Below are positions 1 through 35,232 of a stretch of DNA of 37,852 bases, in pieces. This DNA is from a virus (Duplodnaviria; Heunggongvirae; Uroviricota; Caudoviricetes). The number at the start of each line of letters is the position of its first letter. Position 1 is the first letter of the stretch. The stretch lies in IMG/VR virus record IMGVR_UViG_2531839583_000010; one strand, given 5' to 3'. A program made the translations under genes and the position numbers. A model generated the notes under the pieces. That model was given only the letters and a program-made list of their open reading frames with translations, was not told where the DNA came from and made no database searches.

Positions 1-1053
1 TTACGGGGTAATGCCAACCGCTGCCGCCACTTTGTCGCCACTTGGCAGCGTTGCCAGAGGATTGAAACGGAGCGCCGTTTCCAGATGATCCGGTGCCAGA
101 TGTGCGTAACGCATCGTCATTTTTATATCGTGGTGTCCGAGAATTTTTTGTAAGGCCAGAATGTTTCCACCCGACATCATGAAGTGCGCCGCAAACGTAT
201 GGCGCAGAACGTGTGTGAGTTGACCGCGAGGGAGCACGATAGACGTTTTTTCCATCACGGATAAAAATTGAAAATAGCAGTCTGTGAAGAAATTGAACCC
301 ATCAAGCGCCATGATCTCTTCGTAAAGCTCTTTACTGATAGGGATGCTTCTGTTTTTCTTCCCTTTCGTTCTGACAAAGGTAATTCGGTATTTAGTCACC
401 TGTGAACGGGTAAGATTTATTGCTTCTCGCCAGCGTGCGCCTGTGCTTAAGCAGATCTTGACTACCAGTGCCAGAATTGGGTCCTGACGTTTGCAATCAG
501 CCAGCAATTCAACAATCTGTTCATGGGTAAGCCATGCCATCTCTTTTTCTGCGATGGTGAATTTTCGCATGTTCTCCAGTGGGTTCGGATACGACCATTC
601 GCCCAGGCGGGATAGTTCGCTAAAAACACTACTTAGATAGCTTTGCTCCAGGTTAACGGTGACCGGGCTTGCTCCTTTCTTCCATTTTTCGCTGAAGTAG
701 ATCTCTCCTGTCAGGCGTTTATCTCTATAGTGGGCAAACATTTTAGAGGTGAGATCGGTTGCAATGGGATTTCCCAGAGCGTCAACCATCAACAGCAATT
801 TGTCATAGACATGCTGCCCAGCCGTCAGAGATTTACCATGTAGTTTGAACCATAGCTCAACCACGTCTTTCAGTGTTCGACGATCCACTGATTCACCCAG
901 CCAGGGTTTTGCTTCGGTTTCTTCCATCGTGTGACGCTCAAAAGCCAGAGCTTCGCCTTTGGTGGCGAATTGTTTACGCACACGACGTCCACTACGTCCG
1001 GCGGGGTAACATTCGCAAAGCCATTTTCCTGTGGTGAGTTTTCGTACTGCCAT
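1..1053 (-). CDS. int: Tyrosine integrase (P2/186 family)
   Basis: 350-aa ORF; C-terminal region HVLRHTFAAHFMMSGG...HHDIKMTMRYAHL matches the tyrosine recombinase R-H-R-Y catalytic box; sits at the prophage edge. The last ~6 codons lie left of the att core. Confidence 0.9.
   Translation of the reverse strand: MAVRKLTTGKWLCECYPAGRSGRRVRKQFATKGEALAFERHTMEETEAKPWLGESVDRRTLKDVVELWFKLHGKSLTAGQHVYDKLLLMVDALGNPIATDLTSKMFAHYRDKRLTGEIYFSEKWKKGASPVTVNLEQSYLSSVFSELSRLGEWSYPNPLENMRKFTIAEKEMAWLTHEQIVELLADCKRQDPILALVVKICLSTGARWREAINLTRSQVTKYRITFVRTKGKKNRSIPISKELYEEIMALDGFNFFTDCYFQFLSVMEKTSIVLPRGQLTHVLRHTFAAHFMMSGGNILALQKILGHHDIKMTMRYAHLAPDHLETALRFNPLATLPSGDKVAAAVGITP
19..40. repeat. Putative attL core (cgctgccgccaCtttgtcgcca), inside the 3' end of int
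   Basis: 21 of 22 nt identical to 34988-35009, which lies immediately after the ogr stop; seen directly in the sequence. Confidence 0.45.
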
Positions 1054-1131
1054 AAAAAATGCCCTCCAATAGAGAGCATTTTTACTGTATGTATAACCAG
1101 TGTCAATGTATGATGCTTGAGGTTACATACA

Positions 1132-1503
1132 TCATAAGTACCGATATGATTGCGGGGCCGTTATGTTATCACCTAATGAACTTAGATGAAGCGGTTGATC
1201 ATAGATTTTTAAATTGCCAATTTCTATAGCAAAGGCTTTTTCTTTGCTATGAAAATATGAGTCAAAAAATTGTTTGCTGATACCTGCGTATTGGCTTGTT
1301 TTTTCCCATACAATACTTGGCTTGTCTTCTATAACGTCTGCAATGTCAAATTCAGCAACAACTTTACCGACAGGCATTGTTGAATAAATAACCACAGATT
1401 TTACATCCGGGTTTTTGAAAAGACCTTTCCTGAATTCAAACTTCTTTGTCCCATTAAGGATCTTTTCAACAAATTCAGGTTTTATTGACAATAATACTTT
1501 CAT
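1132..1503 (-). CDS. ASCH-domain (PUA-like fold) protein, cargo gene 3 of the cI-int cassette
   Basis: 123 aa; N-terminus LLSIKPEFVEKILNGTKKFEFRK resembles the ASCH signature (LSIkPeya..Il.GkKt.E.R); overlaps the upstream gene by 29 nt. Homology is recalled, not searched. Confidence 0.6.
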   Translation of the reverse strand: MKVLLSIKPEFVEKILNGTKKFEFRKGLFKNPDVKSVVIYSTMPVGKVVAEFDIADVIEDKPSIVWEKTSQYAGISKQFFDSYFHSKEKAFAIEIGNLKIYDQPLHLSSLGDNITAPQSYRYL

Positions 1504-2554
1504 CTACAGCACCAAGTTTAATTATATCGTCAAATTGCTTATCGGTTAATTTAACAACACCCCAACGGTTTTTAGGATTCAAACCAATTTCTTTAATTAG
1601 TTTAGCACGATTTATTCTTTTAGGTAAAGCTAGATTATATGTAAAACTAATAATGTAAGGGTATCTTCTTGTTTGATAAAATTTTTTCAATTCATTTTCA
1701 GAAAATACACTGTATCGTGCACAATATTGTATGAATTCATTTTCATTATGAAAAGAATCAATATATCTAATATCTTCAACTACACATAATGACGTTGCGA
1801 CAGAACGATAGTATGCTCTGTTCTCTTCGTCACTTGTTCTGTAAATAACTAAGATGTCATGTTTTTTTATTTTTTTTACATCATACATTCTACATATATA
1901 TATTTTTCTAATGCTATTAGCATGAGATACATCCGTGATTATATCTGGAGATTCAGTGACGAGTTTTGAATCAGGAAAAAGTTTTGTATGAAATTCAGGG
2001 TGTATTGACAATAGGTATTTATTCTCATTATTTTTATTATTTATATATGGGTAATCAGAAAGTATATCACCCGTGAGGTGATTTCTATTCATCTCTCTTA
2101 CTAAAACATTTTCTATACCATTTGCGGTTTTTTTTGTGCCATGAAGAATGAATCCATAAAGTTTGAATAGTTTTATTAGATATTCATGTTTTTCAAATAC
2201 AGTAACGTAAATATCATTAACTCTTTCTTTTAAAGCATGATCAAATATTTTTTTTAAAAAACGTTGCCCTCGTAATGTTTTTTTTGTATTGAACTTAAAG
2301 GTTCCAATTTTCAAATGTTTATGATTGATAATTGATGGGGTGACATCAGTTATTTTACCGAATTCAATTTTTAAATACATAAAACCATCAATGGTATTAT
2401 CGTCATTATAAAGCACATATGCTTTTTCTTCTGGATTAAGACTTTTTCTGTTGAACCATTCAATAAAACCGTGTTCATAGTCATTCTTTAACGAATCAAA
2501 AAATGTATCGTCAAAATTTACTTGACTGAATGGAATAAGTTTTAAATTTTCCAT
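1475..2554 (-). CDS. Hypothetical two-domain protein; C-terminal half has an ASCH-like motif, N-terminal half has weak GNAT-like features
   Basis: 359-aa ORF in an AT-rich island; C-terminal segment LLSIHPEFHTKLF...ILVIYRTSDEE echoes the neighbouring ASCH start; the N-terminal RGQRFLKKIFDHAL stretch only loosely resembles GNAT motif A. Confidence 0.5.
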   Translation of the reverse strand: MENLKLIPFSQVNFDDTFFDSLKNDYEHGFIEWFNRKSLNPEEKAYVLYNDDNTIDGFMYLKIEFGKITDVTPSIINHKHLKIGTFKFNTKKTLRGQRFLKKIFDHALKERVNDIYVTVFEKHEYLIKLFKLYGFILHGTKKTANGIENVLVREMNRNHLTGDILSDYPYINNKNNENKYLLSIHPEFHTKLFPDSKLVTESPDIITDVSHANSIRKIYICRMYDVKKIKKHDILVIYRTSDEENRAYYRSVATSLCVVEDIRYIDSFHNENEFIQYCARYSVFSENELKKFYQTRRYPYIISFTYNLALPKRINRAKLIKEIGLNPKNRWGVVKLTDKQFDDIIKLGAVDESIIVNKT

Positions 2555-2581
2555 GTTGCCCCCTGTTTAATTATTGTGAGA

Positions 2582-3646
2582 TTATTTTCTATAGGTCCAA
2601 AGGTGAATAATTATATATATTACAATAGCTAAAATTGCCCCACCGATATAATATGTGCTTGTCGGTATAAATTTAAGAATAAAAGCAAAGGCAGCACCAT
2701 ATATCAAGTACGCAAAAATTTTACTGAATTTGGTTTTCGTGTTTTTAAACTTCACAACAACAGAGAAGTCATTTAGTGTTGTTTCATTATCATTAACAAT
2801 CTTCCAATGGTAAATCATAGGGTCGTGATCACCAAATGAAATACCTTTTTCGAAATATTTTGTCCATGTTTCAGACTCTAATATTCTACATCCTTTATAA
2901 CTTGAGCCAGATGCTGAACATTCATCAACAATATCTCTTATTATAAACAAATGTATTTTTAAAGGTGTGCAAGCGGCGCTCGCCAGAGTTGTAGCAATTT
3001 CTGAAGGTAGGTTTCTTTGTTCATTGATCCTAAAATCAATAATATCAGAACGCTCAATATTACTTTTGAGAAAGAGATCTTTTGGATAAAATGTTTTTAC
3101 TAAAACACCTATATCTTCATTGTTGAGTTTAACTCGAAATCTTAAATAATGTGGAGCATCCTCTGACGATAGGCAATCTTTTAGCTTGAAAACAATGAAG
3201 GTGCCATTATGTATTTTAGTTACCTTAACCCTACGATCAAGTTCGCCACCACTAAAGGTCAGATTTGTATTAACAACTAAATCACCTTTATTCGCAAGTT
3301 CTAATTTTGAATGTCTGACGTCTACTGTTTTTGTATTAATAAGATATTCATTAAAAACAGCTGTTACGAGATCTCGGCTTGACTCGAGATTTTTACTAAG
3401 ATCAGAAAAAAAACAATTTTCCTTCTCAAATGGTAAAAATATGCATATTGCACCATGATTTGCAATGGTGTCGTCATCAGGTTTTTTAAACGTAATACCA
3501 AAATCTAAATAACAAAATTTATGAGCACTTATATTCCAAAAATTTATGTGTAACTCATTAATAAAATTATTGCGTTCAGGGTTATAGGTCGAACTCGAAT
3601 TGCTCCTATAATCCCTACATCCCCAGATAGCAAAACTTTTTGACAT
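2582..3646 (-). CDS. Hypothetical protein with a large soluble N-domain and two C-terminal transmembrane helices
   Basis: 354-aa ORF; C-terminus IFAYLIYGAAFAFILKFI...YYIGGAILAIVIYIIIHLW has two hydrophobic helices; no recognised catalytic motif. Confidence 0.5.
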   Translation of the reverse strand: MSKSFAIWGCRDYRSNSSSTYNPERNNFINELHINFWNISAHKFCYLDFGITFKKPDDDTIANHGAICIFLPFEKENCFFSDLSKNLESSRDLVTAVFNEYLINTKTVDVRHSKLELANKGDLVVNTNLTFSGGELDRRVKVTKIHNGTFIVFKLKDCLSSEDAPHYLRFRVKLNNEDIGVLVKTFYPKDLFLKSNIERSDIIDFRINEQRNLPSEIATTLASAACTPLKIHLFIIRDIVDECSASGSSYKGCRILESETWTKYFEKGISFGDHDPMIYHWKIVNDNETTLNDFSVVVKFKNTKTKFSKIFAYLIYGAAFAFILKFIPTSTYYIGGAILAIVIYIIIHLWTYRK

Positions 3647-3674
3647 AAATATTTCCTTATATCATAGTAAATTA

Positions 3675-4328
3675 TTATACATCTGATAATACTTTTCGAT
3701 AGCATCTTGCGATGGGTTTTATATCGTCAAGCATACATTCAAAAAATGTTTGACCACTGCTAACTTTTACTCTCCCAACTGGAATTCTAACCAGATCACG
3801 AGAACTTATTTTTCCTTCTATTTCAACAATCCATTTCCCATCAATAATTTCATCAAATTTCATGTCTACCAGATAATTATCTGATAACTCAGAAAATATT
3901 GCGGGGGTAATCATATCCACCGGGAGCAAATCTTTATCAAAAATGTAAGAGGAATCACCTTGTAGCTTGCCATCTACTATTTTGTAATGTGGCAATTTTA
4001 TACCTTCTTTCGTTGCTTTAAGACGAGGAGAACCAACACCAGACACTAACCATTCGAGAGACACTCCCGTTTCTAGAGCGCACTGAATTACCCAATCAGC
4101 TGGAAAAATATCACGCATATAGCGCGTTGCCATGGTGCTCTTAGAAACACCTAAATGATCACAGAGAGCCTGACGGGTACCGAACCCATATGCTTCAACT
4201 AAACGTTCTATAGCTTTCTTACCGCCGCTATTGAAATCCACAAGTCCTCCAAAGAAATCCAAAACTCGTTGACAGATTCCAAAAGCGATCTTAAAGTTGA
4301 ACCAGAAGTGTTCTTTTGGAGCCTTCAC
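3675..4328 (-). CDS. cI: CI-type immunity repressor (phage 186 family, HTH)
   Basis: HTH region ERLVEAYGFGTRQALCDHLGVSKSTMATRY...CALETGVSLEWLVSGVG resembles the 186 CI N-domain; divergent from apl/cII as in 186. The true start may be internal (ORF is about 25 aa longer than expected). Confidence 0.7.
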   Translation of the reverse strand: MKAPKEHFWFNFKIAFGICQRVLDFFGGLVDFNSGGKKAIERLVEAYGFGTRQALCDHLGVSKSTMATRYMRDIFPADWVIQCALETGVSLEWLVSGVGSPRLKATKEGIKLPHYKIVDGKLQGDSSYIFDKDLLPVDMITPAIFSELSDNYLVDMKFDEIIDGKWIVEIEGKISSRDLVRIPVGRVKVSSGQTFFECMLDDIKPIARCYRKVLSDV

Positions 4329-5978: not shown

Positions 5979-6205
5979 TGGCTGATGCAATGGATCTCGT
6001 ACAGCAGCGCGTTGAAGAAGAACGCCAACGCCATATCCGTGCTGCCCGTGCCAAAACGCCGGGCGTGTCCCGCGTGCTTTGCATTGAGTGTGAAGCGCCA
6101 ATTCCGCCAGCACGCCGCCGTGCCATTCCGGGTGTGCAGCTTTGCATTACCTGTCAGGAAATCGCAGAGCTGAAAGGCAAACATTACAACGGAGGTGCTG
6201 TATGA
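5978..6205 (+). CDS. TraR/DksA-family C4 zinc-finger protein
   Basis: 75 aa with CIECEAPIP...CITCQE (C-x2-C...C-x2-C), typical of P2 orf82-like TraR/DksA proteins. Confidence 0.65.
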   Translation: MADAMDLVQQRVEEERQRHIRAARAKTPGVSRVLCIECEAPIPPARRRAIPGVQLCITCQEIAELKGKHYNGGAV

Positions 6206-7020
6206 GCACCATCCTGAAATGGGCGGGAAATAAAACTGCCATAATGTCCGAACTGAAAAAACATCTTCCTGCTGGCCCGCGACTGGTTGAACCTTTCGCG
6301 GGTTCCTGTGCTGTGATGATGGAGACGGATTATCCCAGCTATCTGGTTGCGGATATTAATCCTGATTTAATCAACCTCTATAAAAAGGTTGCCGCTGATT
6401 GTGAATCGTTTATATCTCGCGCCAGAGTTTTATTTGAGATCGCAAACAGGGAGGTGGCTTATTACAACATAAGGCAGGAGTTTAATTACTCAACTGAAAT
6501 TACTGATTTCATGAAAGCGGTATATTTCCTGTATCTCAATCGTCACGGTTACCGTGGTTTATGTCGCTATAACAAGAGCGGGCATTTCAACATTCCCTAC
6601 GGTAATTATAAAAATCCGTATTTCCCTGAAAAAGAAATTCGCGCTTTTGCAGAAAAAGCCCAGCGAGCAACGTTTATCTGCGCCAGCTTTGATGAAACGC
6701 TGGCGATGTTGAAGGCGGGGGATGTGGTGTATTGCGATCCGCCTTATGACGGTACGTTTTCCGGCTATCACACTGATGGTTTCACTGAAGATGACCAGTA
6801 TCACCTGGCATCTGTTCTTGAACATCGATCATCAGAAGGACATGCGGTCATTGTTTCTAACAGTGACACATCCCTGATCCGTTCGCTGTATCGCAATTTT
6901 ACTCACCACTACATCAAGGCAAAACGCAGCATCGGCGTAGCAGCTGGTGAGAGTAAATCTGCAACAGAAATCATCGCTGTTTCCGGGCCACGCTGCTGGG
7001 TGGAATTTGGTGGAATTTGA
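6202..7020 (+). CDS. dam: DNA adenine methyltransferase (Dam-like, D12 class N6-adenine MTase)
   Basis: N-terminus LKWAGNK...[10 protein letters not shown] (AdoMet motif) and catalytic DPPY ([10 protein letters not shown]); GGAGG Shine-Dalgarno before ATG 6202. The longer track ORF from 6142 is rejected. Confidence 0.85.
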
Positions 7021-7065
7021 TCCTTCGCGTGGCGTGGATAGTTCTGCTGTGTACGAGGTGCGTGT

Positions 7066-9480
7066 ATGAGTCATGACGATATGAGCAACTCTAGCGGCTT
7101 TAACGAGGCCGCTACAGCATTTTCATGGAACGGCCCGAAAAAGGCCATTAACCCTTATCTGGACCCGGCGGAAGTTGCGCCGGAGTCTGCACTTTTAAAC
7201 CTGATCACTCTGTACGCTGCCGATAATGAGCAGGAACAGCTGCGCCGCGATGCACTGAGTGAGCAGGTCTGGGAGCGTTATTTCTTTAATGAATCTCGTG
7301 ATCCTGTCCAGCGCGAAATGGAGCAGGATAAGCTCATTAGCCGGGCAAAGCTGGCGCATGAACAGCAGCGTTTTAACCCGGACATGGTCATTCTGGCGGA
7401 CGTCAGCGCCCAGCCCACCCATATTAGCAAGCCGCTGATGCAACGTATCGAATACTTCAGCAGCCTGGGCAGGCCAAAGGCTTATTCCCGCTATTTGCGT
7501 GAGACGATTAAGCCATGTCTGGAGCGACTGGATTGTGTACGTGACAGTCAGCTGTCTGCTTCTTTCCGTTTTATGGCAAGCCATCAAGGGCTGGAGGGCC
7601 TGCTGATCCTGCCTGAAATGAGTCAGGACCAGGTGAAACGCCTGTCCACCCTGGTAGCTGCGCATATGAGCATGTGCCTTGATGCAGCTTGTGGCGATTT
7701 GTATGCCACCGATGACGTTAAGCCAGAAGAAATCCGCAAGACATGGGAAAAGGTGGCGGCGGAAACCCTGCGTCTGGATGTCATCCCACCTGCGTTTGAG
7801 CAACTCCGTCGGAAAAGAAACCGCCGTAAACCCGTACCCTATGAACTCATTCCGGGTTCGCTGGCGCGTATGTTGTGCGCCGACTGGTGGTATCGGAAAT
7901 TATGGAAGATGCGTTGCGAATGGCGGGAAGAGCAGTTGCGTGCTGTCTGCCTGGTCAGCAAAAAAGCATCTCCCTATGTCAGCTATGAAGCCGTGATGCA
8001 TAAACGTGAGCAGCGCCGTAAGTCGCTGGAGTTTTTCCGTTCTCATGAACTGGTGAACGAAGACGGCGACACGCTGGACATGGAGGATGTGGTAAACGCC
8101 AGCAGCAGCAACCCTGCGCATCGCCGCAATGAGATGATGGCCTGTGTTAAAGGTCTGGAGCTTATCGCGGAAATGCGCGGTGACTGCGCCGTTTTCTATA
8201 CTATCACCTGTCCGTCACGTTTCCATTCCACGCTCAACAACGGCAGACCCAACCCGACCTGGACAAATGCGACGGTAAGACAAAGCAGCGATTATCTGGT
8301 CGGCATGTTTGCTGCATTTCGTAAGGCAATGCACAAAACCGGGTTGCGCTGGTATGGCGTGCGGGTGGCTGAGCCGCACCATGACGGTACTGTGCACTGG
8401 CATCTCATGTGCTTCATGCGTAAAAAAGACCGCCGCGCCATCACTGCATTACTGCGTAAGTTTGCCATCCGTGTAGACCGCGAGGAGCTGGGCAACAACA
8501 CGGGGCCACGCTTTAAGTCTGAGCTGATTAACCCGCGCAAAGGAACACCGACAAGCTACATCGCGAAATACATCAGTAAGAACATTGACGGGCGTGGTCT
8601 GGCTGGCGAGATCAGCAAGGAAACGGGTAAATCCCTGCGTGATAACGCCGAATACGTTAATGCCTGGGCGTCTCTGCATCGTGTTCAGCAGTTCCGCTTC
8701 TTTGGTATTCCGGGACGTCAGGCTTACCGTGAACTTCGCTTGCTGGCTGGTCAGGCGGCAAGGCAACAGGGGGACAAAAAAGCAGGTGCGCTGATACTGG
8801 ATGACCCGCGCCTTGATGCCATCCTGGCTGCTGCTGATGCTGGTTGTTTTGCCACCTACATCATGAAGCAGGGCGGCGTACTGGTTCCCCGTAAATATCA
8901 CCTTATCAGAACCGCTTATGAAATCAACGAAGAGCCGACCGCCTATGGCGATCACGGCATTCGTATTTATGGCATCTGGTCACCCATTGCAGAGGGCAAG
9001 ATCTGCACTCATGCAGTGAAGTGGAAAATGGTTCGTAAGGCCGTTGACGTTCAGGAGGCGGTAGCCGACCAGGGCGCTTGCGCCCCTTGGACTCGTGGCA
9101 ATAACTGTCCCCTTGCTGAAAATTTGTACCAACAAGGGAAAGACAAATCAGCTGATGGGGATACCAGAACGGATATCACCCGTATGGATGACAAGGAGTT
9201 GCACGATTACCTGCACAGTATGAACAAAAAAGAACGCCGGGAACTGGCTGCAAGGTTACGCCTGGTGAAACCGAAACGGCGTAGAGACTACAAACAGCGA
9301 ATTACAGACCATCAACGACAGCAGCTCGTCTATGAACTGAAGTCCAGAGGATTTGATGGCAGCGAGAAAGAGGTCGATTTACTCCTTCGCGGCGGCAGTA
9401 TTCCGTCAGGAGCAGGCCTGCGTATCTTCTATCGGAACCAGCGTTTGCAGGAAGATGATAAGTGGCGGGATCTGTATTAA
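7066..9480 (+). CDS. A: Replication initiation protein A (rolling-circle nickase, P2 gpA-like)
   Basis: 804-aa ORF downstream of the early genes, in the position and size of P2 gene A. Confidence 0.8.
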
Positions 9481-9573
9481 TTACGCGGGTTAACAATTCG
9501 TGCTCTTAATAATACCAGGCATATCAGGCTGATGAACGTAAAAAAAACGTTTTACATCAGTAAGATTATTATA

Positions 9574-9593
9574 TACTGTAAATATAAACAGTG
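9574..9593. promoter_or_regulatory. LexA (SOS) box CTGT-N8-ACAG
   Basis: tactgtaaatataaacagtg: CTGT at 9576-9579, 8-nt AT spacer, ACAG at 9588-9591; about 45 nt upstream of ORF 9635. Confidence 0.6.
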
Positions 9594-9634
9594 GTTATGT
9601 GTACAGTATTGCTTGTGGTGTCATAGGAGGAAAA

Positions 9635-9823
9635 ATGCAGGACTATTTTTTGGAGTCTTTGAAGCTCCAGCGCATTGATTTTTTTCTTAAGCTTGTAGCG
9701 GCTAGTGAGTGTAGTGATGAAGAGAAGGGGCTGGCTCTGCAGTGGGTTTCTGAATTGACTGATGAACTCATGGCAAAAATCAGAAGCCACGAATACAACC
9801 GCTCAATGGATGTCATCAGCTGA
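9635..9823 (+). CDS. Hypothetical protein, first ORF of the SOS-controlled tum-like module
   Basis: 62-aa ORF with GGAGG Shine-Dalgarno; directly downstream of the LexA box. Confidence 0.45.
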   Translation: MQDYFLESLKLQRIDFFLKLVAASECSDEEKGLALQWVSELTDELMAKIRSHEYNRSMDVIS

Positions 9824-9833
9824 GGTGACTTTT

Positions 9834-10067
9834 ATGCGCATTGAAATAATGATCGATAAAGAGCAGAAAATTAGCCAGTCTACCCTGGACGCCCTTGAAT
9901 CCGAGCTTTACCGCAATCTGCGCCCCCTGTATCCCAAAACGGTAATTCGTATCCGCAAAGGTAGCTCTAACGGTGTGGAACTGACCGGACTGCAACTGGA
10001 CGAAGAAAGAAAACAAGTGATGAAAATTATGCAGAAGGTGTGGGAAGACGACAGCTGGCTGCATTAA
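9834..10067 (+). CDS. DinI-like protein (Tum C-terminal-domain-like antirepressor module)
   Basis: MRIEIMIDKEQ...LDALESELYRNL...KIMQKVWEDDSW parallels E. coli DinI (MRIEVTIAK...EILQETWESADDW); GAGGTG Shine-Dalgarno upstream. Confidence 0.7.
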   Translation: MRIEIMIDKEQKISQSTLDALESELYRNLRPLYPKTVIRIRKGSSNGVELTGLQLDEERKQVMKIMQKVWEDDSWLH

Positions 10068-10572
10068 GAAACGTTGCTGGCGTCTGAACTTGCTTCTGGC
10101 GTCAGCAAGGTTGAATAACGAGCTGTGCGAGGCGTTAGCCATCTGATCAAAAGACATCAAATATCATATTGTATATCGTGGTCAAACGCTGGAAACAATC
10201 ATTCCCGGTCAGAGGGGCTTCTTTCAATGTCTAAAAGAGTGAGATAGAGGATACAGGATGGGAAGAGCTTATGATGATTGTTCTTGGATTGACTTGGAAT
10301 ATTTGATGTCCATTATCTAATGGACTTGGTCTTGATAGTTATCACGAAAGAGGAAGCCAACGTCATGTATTTGAAGAGTATCTCTTACCTTTTGATTAAT
10401 TATTGTCCAAGTTTTTCAAAAGCTTCTTATCTGGCGGTCGATACATGATTTACTGTTGGATATGGTATTTAAAATTAATCTTTACACTGTGGTATATGCA
10501 GAATAGGATATTATCAATACAATCAAACTGTTTTCATACGGTTGTTAATATTGCAATGTTATAGGTAATGTC

Positions 10573-11691
10573 ATGTATCTTTTCAAGTATTACCGTCCGG
10601 ACTTCTTCTTCGAGAAAGCTATTCGTTATAATGAATTATATTTTTCCGCTCCTGCGCAATTGAATGATCCTAATGATCTCAATATAGATTATCGTTTTGA
10701 TAATAAATTGAAATTATGAGATATTTTATTGCGTTCTCCTTGCGATAAATCCTATAAAAATTTGAGTCACATATTAGATTTGAGTAATTTGAAGATACAT
10801 AAGGGATTGAATCGTATTTTTAGAGGAAAAAAAATAAAAAGTAGCATTGAGTCATTAGATAGCCTGTTTGACTCACACGTTGATGAGATACGTAAGATCA
10901 TAAATGATGGTTTACTACCTATCAATGTGATTAATTCCGCTATTTATGGGAATATTCCTGAACCACGCCAATTTTTGGTCTCACTTTGCGAGAACAGTAT
11001 CAAAGAAAGGTTGTATAGGAAAATAGTTCCTGCAGTATTCAGTGTGTCATTTTCAGCTAATGCGTTAGATCGTATGATGTGGGCGCATTATGCTGCAGGC
11101 TTTAGTGGTTGTGTTGTGATTTATGAAACGCAGGATTTTAATATTAATGGCGTACCACATCCTGGAATGAAGTTAAGAGAAAATTTATTTTCATCAGATA
11201 AAATTAATTTTCCAGTTAAGCCAATAAAATATAGTAATCAAGCTAAAGAGGTTTCACTTCTAGACCCAAGCGCAAATGTTGCAGAGTTATTTTTAACTAA
11301 AAATAGATTTTGGAGATATGAAGCTGAATATCGAATGTTTATTCCAGAGGCAAATGCAGGAATAGGGAGTGAGCGGCATGTTCAAAGACACGTAAATCGA
11401 AATATTGGACATGTTTTTCATCATGATGCTAATGTTGTTAAAGGGATCATTTTTGGTCCTAGAATGTGTGAAATGAAAAAAGAAAGCATATGGAATTGTA
11501 TCAAGTCAAATATGGAGAATTCAAATTCAACAATATGTTATTTTTTTGACTCTGAGTTATCAGCATCAGGAAAGATTACTATTTCAAAAGGGCAACGAGC
11601 GGAAAAAATGAAAAATTTCCCTTTGTTCAGGAACAAGTTAAGTCAGACGGAAATGGCTAAAGTTTTGAAGGAAATTGGCATTACGAACTAA
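10573..11691 (+). pseudogene. DUF2971-like gene interrupted by an in-frame TGA (10717-10719)
   Basis: ATG 10573 encodes YLFKYYRPDFFFEKAIRYNELYFSAPAQLNDPND (DUF2971 N-motif as recalled); a TGA follows; the same frame continues to 11691 and contains MWAHYAAGFSGCVVIYE and RFWRYEAEYR (DUF2971 core motifs). The track ORF 10729-11691 starts at a TTG. Confidence 0.55.
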
Positions 11692-11756
11692 CCTAACAAC
11701 AGTGCATGCCTATGCTGCCTGAATTTGCATGACCGTTTGAGGATCGTTTTTGCTAA

Positions 11757-11781
11757 GGCCCGCCAGAACTGGCGGGCTTTT
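11757..11781 (+). terminator. Rho-independent terminator candidate
   Basis: ggcccgccag-aa-ctggcgggc followed by tttt; GC stem plus T-run downstream of the DUF2971-like gene. Confidence 0.6.
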
Positions 11782-11826
11782 GCGTGGATCAGGCACCTGC
11801 ATGAAAACCACTACACAAAGCGGGCA

Positions 11827-11845
11827 GGCGTGGCGGGGATACGAG
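11827..11845. other. Putative cos (cohesive end) site, ggcgtggcggggatacgag
   Basis: The first 13 nt match the recalled P2/186 cohesive end (GGCG[A/T]GGCGGGGA...); it sits in a short GC-rich island between two AT-rich cargo genes. Assigned from memory of the P2/186 cos sequences. Confidence 0.4.
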
Positions 11846-11978
11846 CGCGCGTTATGACAAATAGATGATTAGCCTGATTTATTTACAGCTGTATAAATGA
11901 TCACCTTGTAATTAGGTAAGTAATGTCTTCTATTATCATTGATTTGATAGGATTAATCTGTTTTTTGAGGATTAGAGG

Positions 11979-14315
11979 ATGATTGAAGAGGTAGTTATTG
12001 ACAAGGTAGGCTCATATAATGGCCCTACGCAGCTTTTACATGGACTTTCTAAATTTAACTATTTATATGGAGCTAATGGTGCAGGTAAAACAACTATAAG
12101 TAAAATTATTAATGACCCTGAACAATATCCAACATGTCCGATTAAATGGAAAAATAATATATCTTTAATAAGCTACGTATATAATAAAGATTTTGTTGAA
12201 AGAAATTTTAGTCAAGATAAAATTAAAGGTGTATTTACCCTTGGTAGCGATCTTAAGGAGGATGAAGAGAAACTAATATCTCTTAAAGAAGAAAAAAATA
12301 AGCTAATGGAATCTATTATAGCAAAGGAAAAGTTAATAGATGGTGGTGATAATGAATTAGGCGTTATTAAAAAAATCGAAGACCATGAAAAATCTTTTAA
12401 AGATTCATGTTGGAAGCAAAAAGTAAAACATGACAATGTGTTCTCAAAGGCTTTTGAGGGATTAAGGAATAGTAGTGAAAAATTTAAAGCCAGAGTGTTG
12501 GCTGAGTATGAAAATAATACATCAGAAGTTTGCTCAATAGCAGAGTTAATTGAGAAAGCAAAAATTGTTTTTTCTACTGAATTGACATCACATGTATCAA
12601 TTACAATTCCATCCTTCAATGGGATAGATGATATTTTGAGTAGGGAAGTTTGGAGTGAGCGTATCCTAGGGAAAAAAGACGTTAGTGTTTCAGACTTAAT
12701 TACAATGCTCAATAACAGTGATTGGGTTAAGGAGGGTTTAACATATTTCAGTAAATCTAATCCCAAGTGCCCATTCTGCCAGCAGGATGTAAATGATAAT
12801 ATATTTGATAATCTTTCATCATATTTTGATAAAACATATGAGTTAAAAAAAAGAGAAATCGATGCATTGGTTTTACAATATGAATATCAACTTAATAATA
12901 TCTTGAAGGCGATAGATGATATAAGGGCGATTAAATCTCCATTCATAAATTATGAAGTGTTTGAGGATAAGGCTAAGATAGTATTATCTGAATTAAACAA
13001 GAATTTTGAATTGGCAAAAAATAAACGCAATTTTTTAAGTGAATCAGTTCATTTTAGTGACTTAAGTGAAGTTGTTGATGATTTTATTTCTTTTTTGAAT
13101 GATTCAAATCTATTGATAGATAATAATAACAAAATACATAGTAATAGAAAGGTAGAGGCTAGTAATCTTTCTAAGCAGATATGGGCATATATCGTAAAGG
13201 TGGAGTTAAAGTCTGAAATAACTTCTTACCGTAGCAAATCTGATAAGTTTAATAGGACGTTACAAGGACTTAAATCTGGGATAGAAGAAGACAAAAAGAA
13301 GTTAATGTTAAATACTTCGGCTATTGAGGCAATTGAGTCTAATAAAACCAGTACTCTTCCAACTATTACAAAAATTAACAAGATTCTGGACTCTTATGGC
13401 TTCAAAAATTTTTACTTAAAACCCTCCGAAGATAAAAAGCATTATATGATAGTGAGAGATAGTGGAGATAATGCTCGTACAACCCTTAGTGAGGGAGAAA
13501 AGACATTTATCACTTTTTTGTACTTTTATAGCCTTGTTAGAGGGAGTGATAATGCATCAGGTGTTTTAGATGATCGTGTTGTAGTATTTGATGATCCAAT
13601 TTCAAGTTTAGATAGTGATATTCTGTTTATTGTAAGTTCGTTGATTAAAGATTTAATGGAGGATGTTCGTAAGGATGAAGGAAATATTAAGCAAATTATA
13701 TTCCTTACTCATAATATTTATTTTCATAAAGAGTTGACTTTTAATACCAAAAGATCCGGTAATCAAGCAATGAAAGAGGAGACTTTTTGGATTGTAAGGA
13801 AAAAAGGGAAGGTTTCATATCTTGAAAAGTGCGAATCAAACCCAATAAAAACGTCTTATGATTTGCTCTGGTGCGAATTGAGAAGAACAGACATTAATAA
13901 TAATACTATACAAAATACAATGCGAAGGATTTTGGAGAATTACTTTAAGATATTAGGTGGGATGGATATTAGGAAGCTTGAGTGTCATTTTTATGGTGAT
14001 GAAAAAATCATATTTAAATCTTTAGTGTCATGGATTAATGATGGTTCCCATTTTGCAGGTGATGATCTTTATATGAATTTAGATACGGAGTCTGTGCAAA
14101 AATATTTAATTGTTTTTCAGAAGATATTTGAATGTAGTGAGCATACTGCCCATTACAAAATGATGATGGGTGAGTTTTATAAACCGTTAAATGAGTCACT
14201 TCATCTACAAGATGAGTTTGATATAGATGATAGTGCGAATGATGAGTATGCTTCGTCAAAAATTGAGATAAAAGATGGAATAAACACATCTCTACATAGC
14301 AACACATATTTGTAA
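11979..14315 (+). CDS. RloC-like ABC/AAA_13-type ATPase with coiled-coil CxxC hook and C-terminal HEPN-like (R-x4-H) domain; candidate anticodon-nuclease-type defense protein
   Basis: Walker A GANGAGKTT (aa 31-39, nt 12069-12095); CPFC (aa 264-267, nt 12768-12779) inside a K/E-rich predicted coiled coil; LSEGEK signature (aa 503-508); Walker B/D-loop VVVFDDPISSLD (aa 534-545); RKLECH (aa 665-670, nt 13971-13988). AT-rich. Confidence 0.6.
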   Translation: MIEEVVIDKVGSYNGPTQLLHGLSKFNYLYGANGAGKTTISKIINDPEQYPTCPIKWKNNISLISYVYNKDFVERNFSQDKIKGVFTLGSDLKEDEEKLISLKEEKNKLMESIIAKEKLIDGGDNELGVIKKIEDHEKSFKDSCWKQKVKHDNVFSKAFEGLRNSSEKFKARVLAEYENNTSEVCSIAELIEKAKIVFSTELTSHVSITIPSFNGIDDILSREVWSERILGKKDVSVSDLITMLNNSDWVKEGLTYFSKSNPKCPFCQQDVNDNIFDNLSSYFDKTYELKKREIDALVLQYEYQLNNILKAIDDIRAIKSPFINYEVFEDKAKIVLSELNKNFELAKNKRNFLSESVHFSDLSEVVDDFISFLNDSNLLIDNNNKIHSNRKVEASNLSKQIWAYIVKVELKSEITSYRSKSDKFNRTLQGLKSGIEEDKKKLMLNTSAIEAIESNKTSTLPTITKINKILDSYGFKNFYLKPSEDKKHYMIVRDSGDNARTTLSEGEKTFITFLYFYSLVRGSDNASGVLDDRVVVFDDPISSLDSDILFIVSSLIKDLMEDVRKDEGNIKQIIFLTHNIYFHKELTFNTKRSGNQAMKEETFWIVRKKGKVSYLEKCESNPIKTSYDLLWCELRRTDINNNTIQNTMRRILENYFKILGGMDIRKLECHFYGDEKIIFKSLVSWINDGSHFAGDDLYMNLDTESVQKYLIVFQKIFECSEHTAHYKMMMGEFYKPLNESLHLQDEFDIDDSANDEYASSKIEIKDGINTSLHSNTYL

Positions 14316-14326
14316 TTTTATTACAA

Positions 14327-14356
14327 TTGCCAGTAGCAACAATACGGTACTGGCAA
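14327..14356. terminator. Hairpin between convergent ATPase gene and Q (ttgccagta-N12-tactggcaa)
   Basis: Perfect 9-bp inverted repeat with a 12-nt loop in the 49-bp gap between convergent genes; AT-rich stem, so strength is uncertain. Confidence 0.35.
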
Positions 14357-14364
14357 CTAATATT

Positions 14365-35009: not shown

Positions 35010-35232
35010 TTTGTCGCCATCGTTAAAAAACAGTGCTTCTAACATCATGATTTTAAACAGCTTAAATTTCAGGCAACAAAAAACCCATCAACCTTGAACC
35101 GAAATGGCGGGGGTGATGGGCTCCACAAAATGGGGACATCAAAGAAAAGCAGTGGCACTAATTAAGACTGATGCCCTGCGGAAAAGTTCTGCGGTTGTGC
35201 AAAAAAATTTCATTTTCAGGGCAACTTCAGTT

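Follow-up and report, generated by a model that had tools for sequence, protein, structure and literature searches.

A GNAT-EVE/ASCH gene pair and an orphan membrane-protein family share a cargo cassette between cI and int of a 186-like Escherichia coli prophage

What are three AT-rich genes doing between the repressor and integrase genes of a prophage? The question is raised by IMG/VR record IMGVR_UViG_2531839583_000010 (Caudoviricetes), a stretch of 37,852 nucleotides, referred to here as the window, that contains a complete 186-like prophage of the Peduoviridae from Escherichia coli. IMG/VR also contains an identical UViG (L120). Three minus-strand genes at 1132-3646 are flanked there by cI (3675-4328) and int (1-1053). 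A preliminary description had called them a cargo cassette of the kind expected for superinfection exclusion or abortive infection, and an open reading frame (ORF) listing confirms its coordinates for three co-oriented, tightly packed genes. The same description did not recognise the gene combination, which was wrong for two of the three: ORF-B and ORF-C together are the candidate system PDC-M11, the operon of Bell et al. 2020, and the pair labelled GevT/GevA in a phage record. The third gene, ORF-A, appears on strong evidence to be a new part, a member of a large orphan membrane-protein family that belongs to GNAT/ASCH systems.

Profile matches identify the pair. ORF-B (359 residues; 1475-2554, minus strand) matches the PADLOC profile for PDC-M11A (PDLC04419, E 9.6e-134, residues 3-357 of 359) and phrog_6345 of PHROGs (7.7e-152), and ORF-C (123 residues; 1132-1503, minus strand) matches the profile for PDC-M11B from residue 1 to residue 123 (PDLC04425, E 2.2e-49). 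The two genes are adjacent, co-oriented and overlapping. Beyond these models, a PADLOC scan of all three proteins gave just one marginal match, to AbiEi. The suspicion of a defence-type module, taken to the catalogue, thus found a named counterpart for ORF-B and ORF-C and none for ORF-A. The definition of PDC-M11 comprises two genes; ORF-A, linked to them here as a third, matches none of the PADLOC models.

Within ORF-B, an N-terminal GNAT acetyltransferase fold (residues 1-160; 2075-2554) is followed by a PUA-like domain, probably of EVE type (residues 166-359; 1478-2059), in agreement with the two domains described earlier. A narrower delimitation gives 1-155 for the GNAT fold and 179-359 for the second domain. 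The second domain matches Pfam EVE below threshold (E 0.11; 5 of 20 family members match, the best at E 0.0075). Compared with the ASCH family by hhalign (E 1e-3, 20% probability), it has a common core 'LLSI.PEF ... IY.T', and its first residues, 'YLLSIHPEF', resemble 'VLLSIKPEF' at the start of ORF-C. Its profile found no match among PDB sequences.

ORF-C matches Pfam ASCH at E 2.1e-6 (28.8 bits against a gathering score of 21.2), and its earlier label of ASCH-like stands. A sequence search of the PDB gave as its closest solved structure the ASCH protein of Zymomonas mobilis (5GUS, E 7.6e-9), which binds single-stranded RNA and single-stranded DNA and has a weak Mg-dependent RNase activity (5GUS/5GUQ). 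ORF-C keeps the GxKxxxxR motif of that protein (G18, K20, R25) as well as equivalents of its Tyr47 (Y40) and Ser128 (S119), whereas the Lys53 position aligns to G46, with K47 adjacent, a shift of one residue. The Zymomonas protein also differs in its annotated context, which is helix-turn-helix, with no GNAT-EVE partner described. In NCBIfam, ORF-C further aligns to positions 191-310 of the 311-position profile PRK12279 (E 5e-13), where the C-terminal 'unknown domain' of a ribosomal protein L22 fusion lies. The match links the ASCH subfamily of ORF-C to the ribosome and would fit an RNA- or translation-directed role. We also considered for ORF-C the role of a YqfB-type N4-acetylcytidine amidohydrolase that reverses acetylation, and set it aside as speculative, as the PDB search gave no match to the YqfB subfamily.

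Operons of the (PIN)-GNAT-EVE/ASCH type were reportedly first noted by Iyer and colleagues in 2013. According to Bell, Wolf and Koonin 2020 (PMC7641849), nearly all (PIN)-GNAT-EVE operons include an ASCH gene, many also carry one for an AAA_17 ATPase, and the PIN-less form is common in beta- and gamma-proteobacterial prophages. These authors regard the operons as predicted toxin-antitoxin or conflict systems, all uncharacterised, suggest aminoacyl-tRNA as a possible target and assign the C-terminal domain to EVE. The cassette is of the same build, with GNAT fused to a PUA-like domain at the C-terminus and an ASCH gene next in line; it is PIN-less and lies in a gamma-proteobacterial prophage. 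AAA_17 is an optional member of that operon, and the cassette has no AAA_17 gene. The designation PDC-M was given to multi-gene phage defence candidates found embedded in BREX, DISARM or type I restriction-modification (RM) loci (Payne et al., bioRxiv 10.1101/2024.01.29.577857).

The pair is widespread. Across 80 GNAT-EVE loci, surveyed with one genome per species, the GNAT-EVE and ASCH genes are adjacent and overlapping in 78, and the pairs range over Proteobacteria, Bacteroidota, Firmicutes and Verrucomicrobia. A 175-residue AAA_17 protein adjoins the pair at 21 of the 80 loci, and a LexA/cI-type repressor lies three or fewer genes away at six. The pair is also found outside prophages, in or beside type I RM, YobI-ATPase, PIN_8, DUF2971 and Abi_2 genes. 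Among 5426 complete E. coli genomes, 310 contain GNAT-EVE-related DNA.

Hints of function come from several settings. In Escherichia phage PhiR47_2 (GenBank PV340567.1) the homologues are labelled 'GevT toxin' and 'GevA antitoxin'; ORF-B is 56.3% identical to GevT over 99% of its length, and ORF-C is 63% identical to GevA over its whole length (E 7e-62). This two-gene version, in a lambdoid phage and without ORF-A, lies directly downstream of cI on the same strand, at the position of lambda rexAB, and the pair directly follows cI in lambdoid prophages of E. coli as well. In the well-studied P2-like Salmonella phage SopEPhi, orf12 and orf13 (L133:3444-4908) form a pair, 43.5% identical to ORF-B in its GNAT-EVE member, in the GpA-portal hotspot beside a DinI-like gene rather than between cI and int. 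Lastly, a preprint on transposon-insertion sequencing (Tn-seq) in Pectobacteriaceae lists, for a prophage of Dickeya dadantii 3937, CI as essential, the adjacent GNAT gene as causing a growth defect (GD) and the ASCH gene as essential (ES). At 90% identity the GNAT and ASCH proteins of D. dadantii cluster with close homologues of ORF-B and ORF-C. If the pair is a toxin and its antidote, an ASCH gene that cannot be lost next to a GNAT gene would be expected; the calls, the only functional data found, agree with that reading better than they establish defence.

How, then, does ORF-A (354 residues; 2582-3646, minus strand) relate to this pair? It had been described as membrane-anchored, and it contains exactly two hydrophobic segments, at about residues 309-352, with none earlier (Kyte-Doolittle windows of at least 1.6). 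AlphaFold predicts helices at 307-325 and 331-353, and together these form a C-terminal two-helix transmembrane hairpin (residues 307-353; 2588-2728) that ends in a basic tail, YRK, and is kept across the family. The soluble N-terminal region (residues 1-302; 2741-3646) is mostly beta and is modelled as a beta-sandwich domain. Over a diverse sample of the family 21 residues are invariant, many of them Arg, His, Trp or Tyr (H33, N35, W37, D48, G50, P72, F98, N99, Y167, R169, R171, D204, R206, N208, R211, R254, E257, W261, Y264, H280 and W281).

ORF-A matches no family in Pfam, PADLOC, PHROGs or NCBIfam, its profile has no match among PDB sequences, and a Foldseek comparison with viral structures gave nothing at E 1e-3 or below. 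The family is nevertheless large. With an exhaustive profile search it came to 1015 representatives (50% identity), of which 767 scored below 1e-10, compared with just 25 clusters, all from Enterobacterales, in a word-indexed search. Since full-length homologues of ORF-A, ORF-B and ORF-C occur in many genomes, we regard all three as real genes rather than chance ORFs.

The most informative property of the ORF-A family is the company it keeps. Wherever a locus extends far enough to be evaluated, both a GNAT gene and an M11B-type ASCH gene are found no further than two genes from the ORF-A homologue, and among these evaluable loci we found no homologue that lacks either neighbour. The linkage spans Alpha-, Beta- and Gammaproteobacteria as well as gut metagenomes, and takes in three architectures and several gene orders. 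Closest to the window are 186-like prophages of Serratia, Yersinia, Dickeya and Raoultella, all arranged cI-A-B-C-int with ORF-A at 49-79% identity. Within the survey of 80 GNAT-EVE loci, ORF-A homologues adjoin the pair at five. The homologue precedes the pair in Raoultella and Aggregatibacter, follows it in Sinorhizobium and Agrobacterium, and is encoded on the other strand in Methylophilus. The GNAT-EVE proteins that have an ORF-A neighbour are scattered among those that lack one.

Two further clades extend this pattern. A distant clade (26% identity) comes from gut and rumen metagenomes, where in 17 of 21 loci ORF-A lies directly upstream of a 501-residue long form, presumably PIN-GNAT-EVE, and then ASCH; the other four loci are truncated by the contig. 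In these loci a stop codon shares 4 nucleotides with the next start codon, and the neighbours include YobI-ATPase, PIN_8, DUF2971 and Ham1-AAA_17 fusions. The A-B-C order is likewise found in 11 of 12 IMG/VR loci. On two metagenome contigs a fusion of a Ham1-like non-canonical nucleoside triphosphate pyrophosphatase with an AAA_17 kinase-like domain stands just upstream of ORF-A-like, long-form GNAT-EVE and ASCH genes (L113:2946-4544, L114:904-2481). This fusion is a hint that these systems may deal in nucleotides and not in proteins or tRNA. A third clade, from Vibrio parahaemolyticus, Pseudomonas kielensis, Acinetobacter pittii and Nitrosomonas communis (L134-L137), combines an M11B-type ASCH gene and AAA_17, divergent from or in tandem with ORF-A followed by a stand-alone GNAT of 155-161 residues without EVE; AAA_17 is present in all four loci. 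At L134 the start of the small GNAT gene overlaps the stop of ORF-A, and the opposite strand carries a full GNAT-EVE gene; the neighbourhood of L135 includes Abi_2 and integrase genes. A role in O-antigen or lysogenic conversion, brought to mind by some distant loci beside polysaccharide genes, was rejected, since IS66 is also present at those loci and other loci do not show the association.

Because the linkage is conserved while order, strand and domain architecture all change, it is strong evidence that ORF-A shares a function with the GNAT and ASCH genes. A transmembrane partner is not mentioned in the main text of Bell et al. 2020 (PMC7641849). In matched loci ORF-A diverges fastest (49-79% identity, compared with 67-81% for ORF-B and 74-89% for ORF-C), as would be expected of a part engaged in an arms race.

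The position of the cassette is as telling as its content. The guanine-plus-cytosine (GC) content of 1132-3646 is 30.5% against 53.6% for the prophage backbone (ORF-A 31.7%, ORF-B 27.5%, ORF-C 34.1%), as the claim of an AT-rich island implied. Homology of the int region to 15 phage records ends exactly at base 1132, in the stop codon of ORF-C (megablast, 50,697 phage records), and the 78-nucleotide spacer at the junction with int (1054-1131, minus strand) is kept in sister phages. The int gene itself is 96% identical in nucleotides to int genes of Klebsiella and E. coli Peduoviridae. Klebsiella phage 4LV2017 has an unrelated 349-residue gene between cI and int. In E. coli phage vB_EcoM-813R9, whose int is 96% identical, the slot holds a 558-residue match to the validated defence gene PD-Lambda-1 (PADLOC, 3.1e-120). 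The depositor's annotation of this gene, at 6136-7812 of locus L002, is 'chromosome segregation ATPase'. The claim of variable cargo rather than core genes is thus upheld, and the cassette is, to judge from these comparisons, non-core, horizontally acquired cargo.

Within E. coli the slot varies further. The region is present at 99.9% identity in strain C2, and ORF-A occurs in just seven of the 5426 complete genomes, namely C2 and six others. A commoner variant at the same attachment site (L003:6079-9183; WP5-W18-ESBL-11 and many others) also carries a GNAT-EVE/ASCH pair. Its proteins match those of the window at 99% for Int, 97% for ASCH and 68% for GNAT-EVE; an unrelated 260-residue gene sits in the place of ORF-A, and cI is a 299-residue form at 55%. 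We interpret this stepwise drop in identity to indicate recombination breakpoints inside the cassette, within the toxin/antidote pair, and the ASCH and GNAT-EVE partners appear exchangeable. The 260-residue gene was considered as a diverged homologue of ORF-A, but BLASTP found no relationship between them, and the gene shows just a weak similarity to DUF3644/HEC-08. A hotspot between cI and int is not a new idea. Rousset et al. 2022 had already reported one in K139-like relatives of P2, and in a 2026 preprint 8% of the defence systems of P2 map to the interval from integrase to primase.

Taken together, these results incline us, with modest confidence, to see the cassette as a toxin/antidote-type abortive-infection or exclusion module that is co-transcribed with the repressor and has a dedicated membrane component. 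The toxin/antidote aspect is suggested by the GevT/GevA labels and the D. dadantii Tn-seq calls. The idea of cargo expressed in the lysogen, or of a defence context, follows from the variable slot and the presence of PD-Lambda-1 in it, the rexAB and GpA-portal positions of related pairs, the low GC, the tight spacing and the origin of PDC-M11. In the working we envisage, the cassette would be transcribed with cI in the lysogen, and ORF-B would transfer an acetyl group from acetyl-CoA to an amine of a target linked to nucleic acid, for example a charged tRNA or a base, to which its PUA-like EVE domain would direct it, with growth arrest as the result. ORF-C, as a PUA-like nucleic-acid binder, would neutralise ORF-B in the healthy lysogen through direct binding, through competition for the modification or through its reversal. 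The balance would tip when another phage infects or when the prophage is lost, and growth would stop before the intruder multiplies. In ORF-A, a cytoplasmic beta-sandwich rich in invariant Arg, His and aromatic residues would be held at the inner membrane by the C-terminal hairpin. The protein would most likely act as an infection sensor or regulator that couples membrane events to the acetyltransferase; alternatively, it could be a second effector that damages the membrane.

A broader and more tentative extension, which we rate as possible but doubtful, is that the ORF-A family as a whole is a widespread membrane-anchored component with which an acetyltransferase toxin and its antidote become a three-part device for abortive infection. 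ORF-A might sense phage entry and release the acetyltransferase, or the product of acetylation might activate ORF-A to damage the membrane. If this is true, the family would constitute a new class of sensor or effector and the first functional handle on acetylation-based immunity. If the module does acetylate a nucleic-acid-linked target on infection, this would be new chemistry for phage defence. GNAT-EVE/ASCH pairs are common and occupy the best-known defence slots of temperate phages, with no published mechanism or phenotype in the searchable literature. For experimental work the window provides a small three-gene form that occurs naturally in an E. coli prophage, and it suggests that the two-gene catalogue definition of PDC-M11 is incomplete.

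Several points weigh against the abortive-infection or exclusion module that we favour. ORF-A is absent from 75 of the 80 GNAT-EVE loci, which means that the core activity does not depend on it, and its role is a guess because it has no informative structural relative. The GNAT and EVE domains of ORF-B both fall below the Pfam threshold, and its acetyl-CoA pyrophosphate loop has an invariant R95-G96-x-R98 that departs from the pattern Q/RxxGxG/A. A literature search found no publication behind the names GevT and GevA, which are the depositor's annotation, and, in the searchable literature, neither a functional study of PDC-M11, GNAT-EVE or GevT nor an experiment with this cassette or a homologue of it. 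AT-rich, H-NS-bound DNA can yield false 'essential' calls in Tn-seq, and the 'growth defect' call for the D. dadantii GNAT gene is not expected from a simple toxin model. The PDC entries of PADLOC are candidates, and at least two others, PDC-M63 and PDC-S04, gave no defence on testing.

Other explanations share much of this evidence. The module could serve prophage addiction only, the GNAT-EVE/ASCH toxin-antitoxin arresting or killing cells that lose or inactivate the prophage, with no anti-phage protection and with ORF-A as a modulator. The Tn-seq essentiality of an ASCH gene beside cI and the GevT/GevA annotation fit such a plain toxin-antitoxin system, as does a position between cI and int, which would be lost on excision. 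Counter to this, the pair also resides outside prophages, among the type I RM, YobI-ATPase, PIN_8, DUF2971 and Abi_2 genes mentioned above, and within phages it is found in known defence hotspots of both P2-like and lambdoid types. Given that many toxin-antitoxin systems in such slots prove to be abortive-infection systems, we consider addiction alone unlikely. A separate line of thought starts from the nature of the domains. GNAT-EVE might acetylate a DNA or RNA base, or a host factor, against host restriction, with ASCH and ORF-A as reader or regulator. A proposal of nucleic-acid modification or anti-restriction is also said to have come from Iyer and colleagues in 2013. Bell et al. 2020 (PMC7641849) suggested that prophage GNAT-EVE proteins may protect phages against RM. 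The two PUA-like 'reader' domains and the recurrence of nucleotide-handling AAA_17 kinase-like proteins and Ham1-AAA_17 fusions beside the operons would suit this role. It is nonetheless quite improbable, as anti-restriction is needed in lytic growth whereas a repressor operon implies expression in the lysogen, the Tn-seq essentiality of ASCH suggests a toxicity that needs neutralisation, and a membrane-anchored partner is hard to fit to DNA modification.

It is also conceivable that ORF-A stands apart from its neighbours, as a single-gene superinfection-exclusion protein that blocks DNA entry beside an unrelated two-gene module. Its place outside the two-gene PADLOC definition, its rarity at GNAT-EVE loci, its replacement by a different 260-residue gene in the common E. 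coli variant and its rapid evolution could all be read in this way. The linkage data make such independence unlikely: GNAT and ASCH genes lie within two genes at every evaluable ORF-A locus, often with stop/start overlaps of 4 nucleotides, and this is the explanation to which we give least credence.

The proposed abortive-infection module has partial counterparts among characterised systems. The type II toxins TacT, AtaT, ItaT and KacT likewise pair a GNAT fold with an adjacent neutralising gene, and they acetylate aminoacyl-tRNA. Their partner is an RHH/DUF1778 DNA-binding antitoxin, whereas that of ORF-B is an ASCH protein, and scans with Pfam and NCBIfam found no RHH/DUF1778-type antitoxin family among the three cassette proteins. 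ORF-B carries a PUA-like domain in addition compared with those toxins, and searches of PADLOC, NCBIfam and the PDB gave no sequence match to their families. Lambda rexAB and BstA resemble the cassette in another respect, as accessory genes by or after a repressor with expected expression in the lysogen. The earlier analogy with rexAB is an apt one, since the same B/C pair sits directly downstream of cI, at the rexAB position, in lambdoid relatives. RexB is a membrane protein, as is ORF-A. The likeness does not extend to descent or chemistry: PADLOC, Pfam and PHROG scans of the three proteins found no homology to RexA or RexB, acetyltransferase chemistry differs from the ion-channel activation of RexAB, and there is no relationship of sequence or fold.

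Upstream of the cassette lies the 186-type cI repressor gene (3675-4328, minus strand; Pfam Phage_CI_repr 5.5e-30, Phage_CI_C 2.8e-29), plausibly the first gene of a lysogenic transcript that would also include the three cassette genes. Gaps of 28 nucleotides between cI and ORF-A and 27 between ORF-A and ORF-B, a 29-nucleotide overlap of ORF-B and ORF-C, the shared strand and the fact that a promoter and terminator scan found no convincing terminator between cI and int on the minus strand make co-transcription plausible. The 78-nucleotide spacer between ORF-C and int contains a promoter-like site, TTGACA-17-AAAAAT, at 1106..1078, just upstream of int; it is a match to consensus only. Rfam and tRNA scans gave no match inside the cassette. 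The int gene (1-1053, minus strand) encodes a P2/186-type integrase (Pfam Int_N 1.7e-32, Phage_integrase 7.2e-22), and as the last gene of the leftward block it forms the boundary of the slot.

The cI gene has features of its own. The same 654-nucleotide gene is annotated by RefSeq in strain A30. As listed, it starts with GTG and encodes 217 residues, and the cI proteins of relatives have 188-204. The true start may be internal, because the Pfam repressor domain starts only at residue 39 of 217. The GC content of cI is 39.0%, and its C-terminal half is AT-rich (31.6% GC in the 3501-4000 interval). The cassette and the immunity region may thus have been acquired jointly.

Near the right end of the window, at 35075-35153 on the minus strand, is the gene for the small RNA RybB (Rfam, 100 bits, E 1.2e-19), and rcdA/ybjJ adjoin int in related prophages. 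From these two observations together we place the integration of the prophage at the rcdA-rybB locus, in which case the right end of the window is chromosomal flank.

The cassette is not the only AT-rich segment of the prophage. A second island (34% GC) occupies 9481-14364 of the window, in the classical GpA-portal (old/tin) hotspot of P2. It encodes a 778-residue AAA_13 ATPase (11979..14315, plus strand) that matches the PADLOC candidate PDC-S06 (1.6e-266) and a 320-residue DUF2971 protein (10729..11691, plus strand) with a weaker similarity to PDC-S31 (2e-17). With the cassette between cI and int, the prophage thus has two separate candidate-defence islands.

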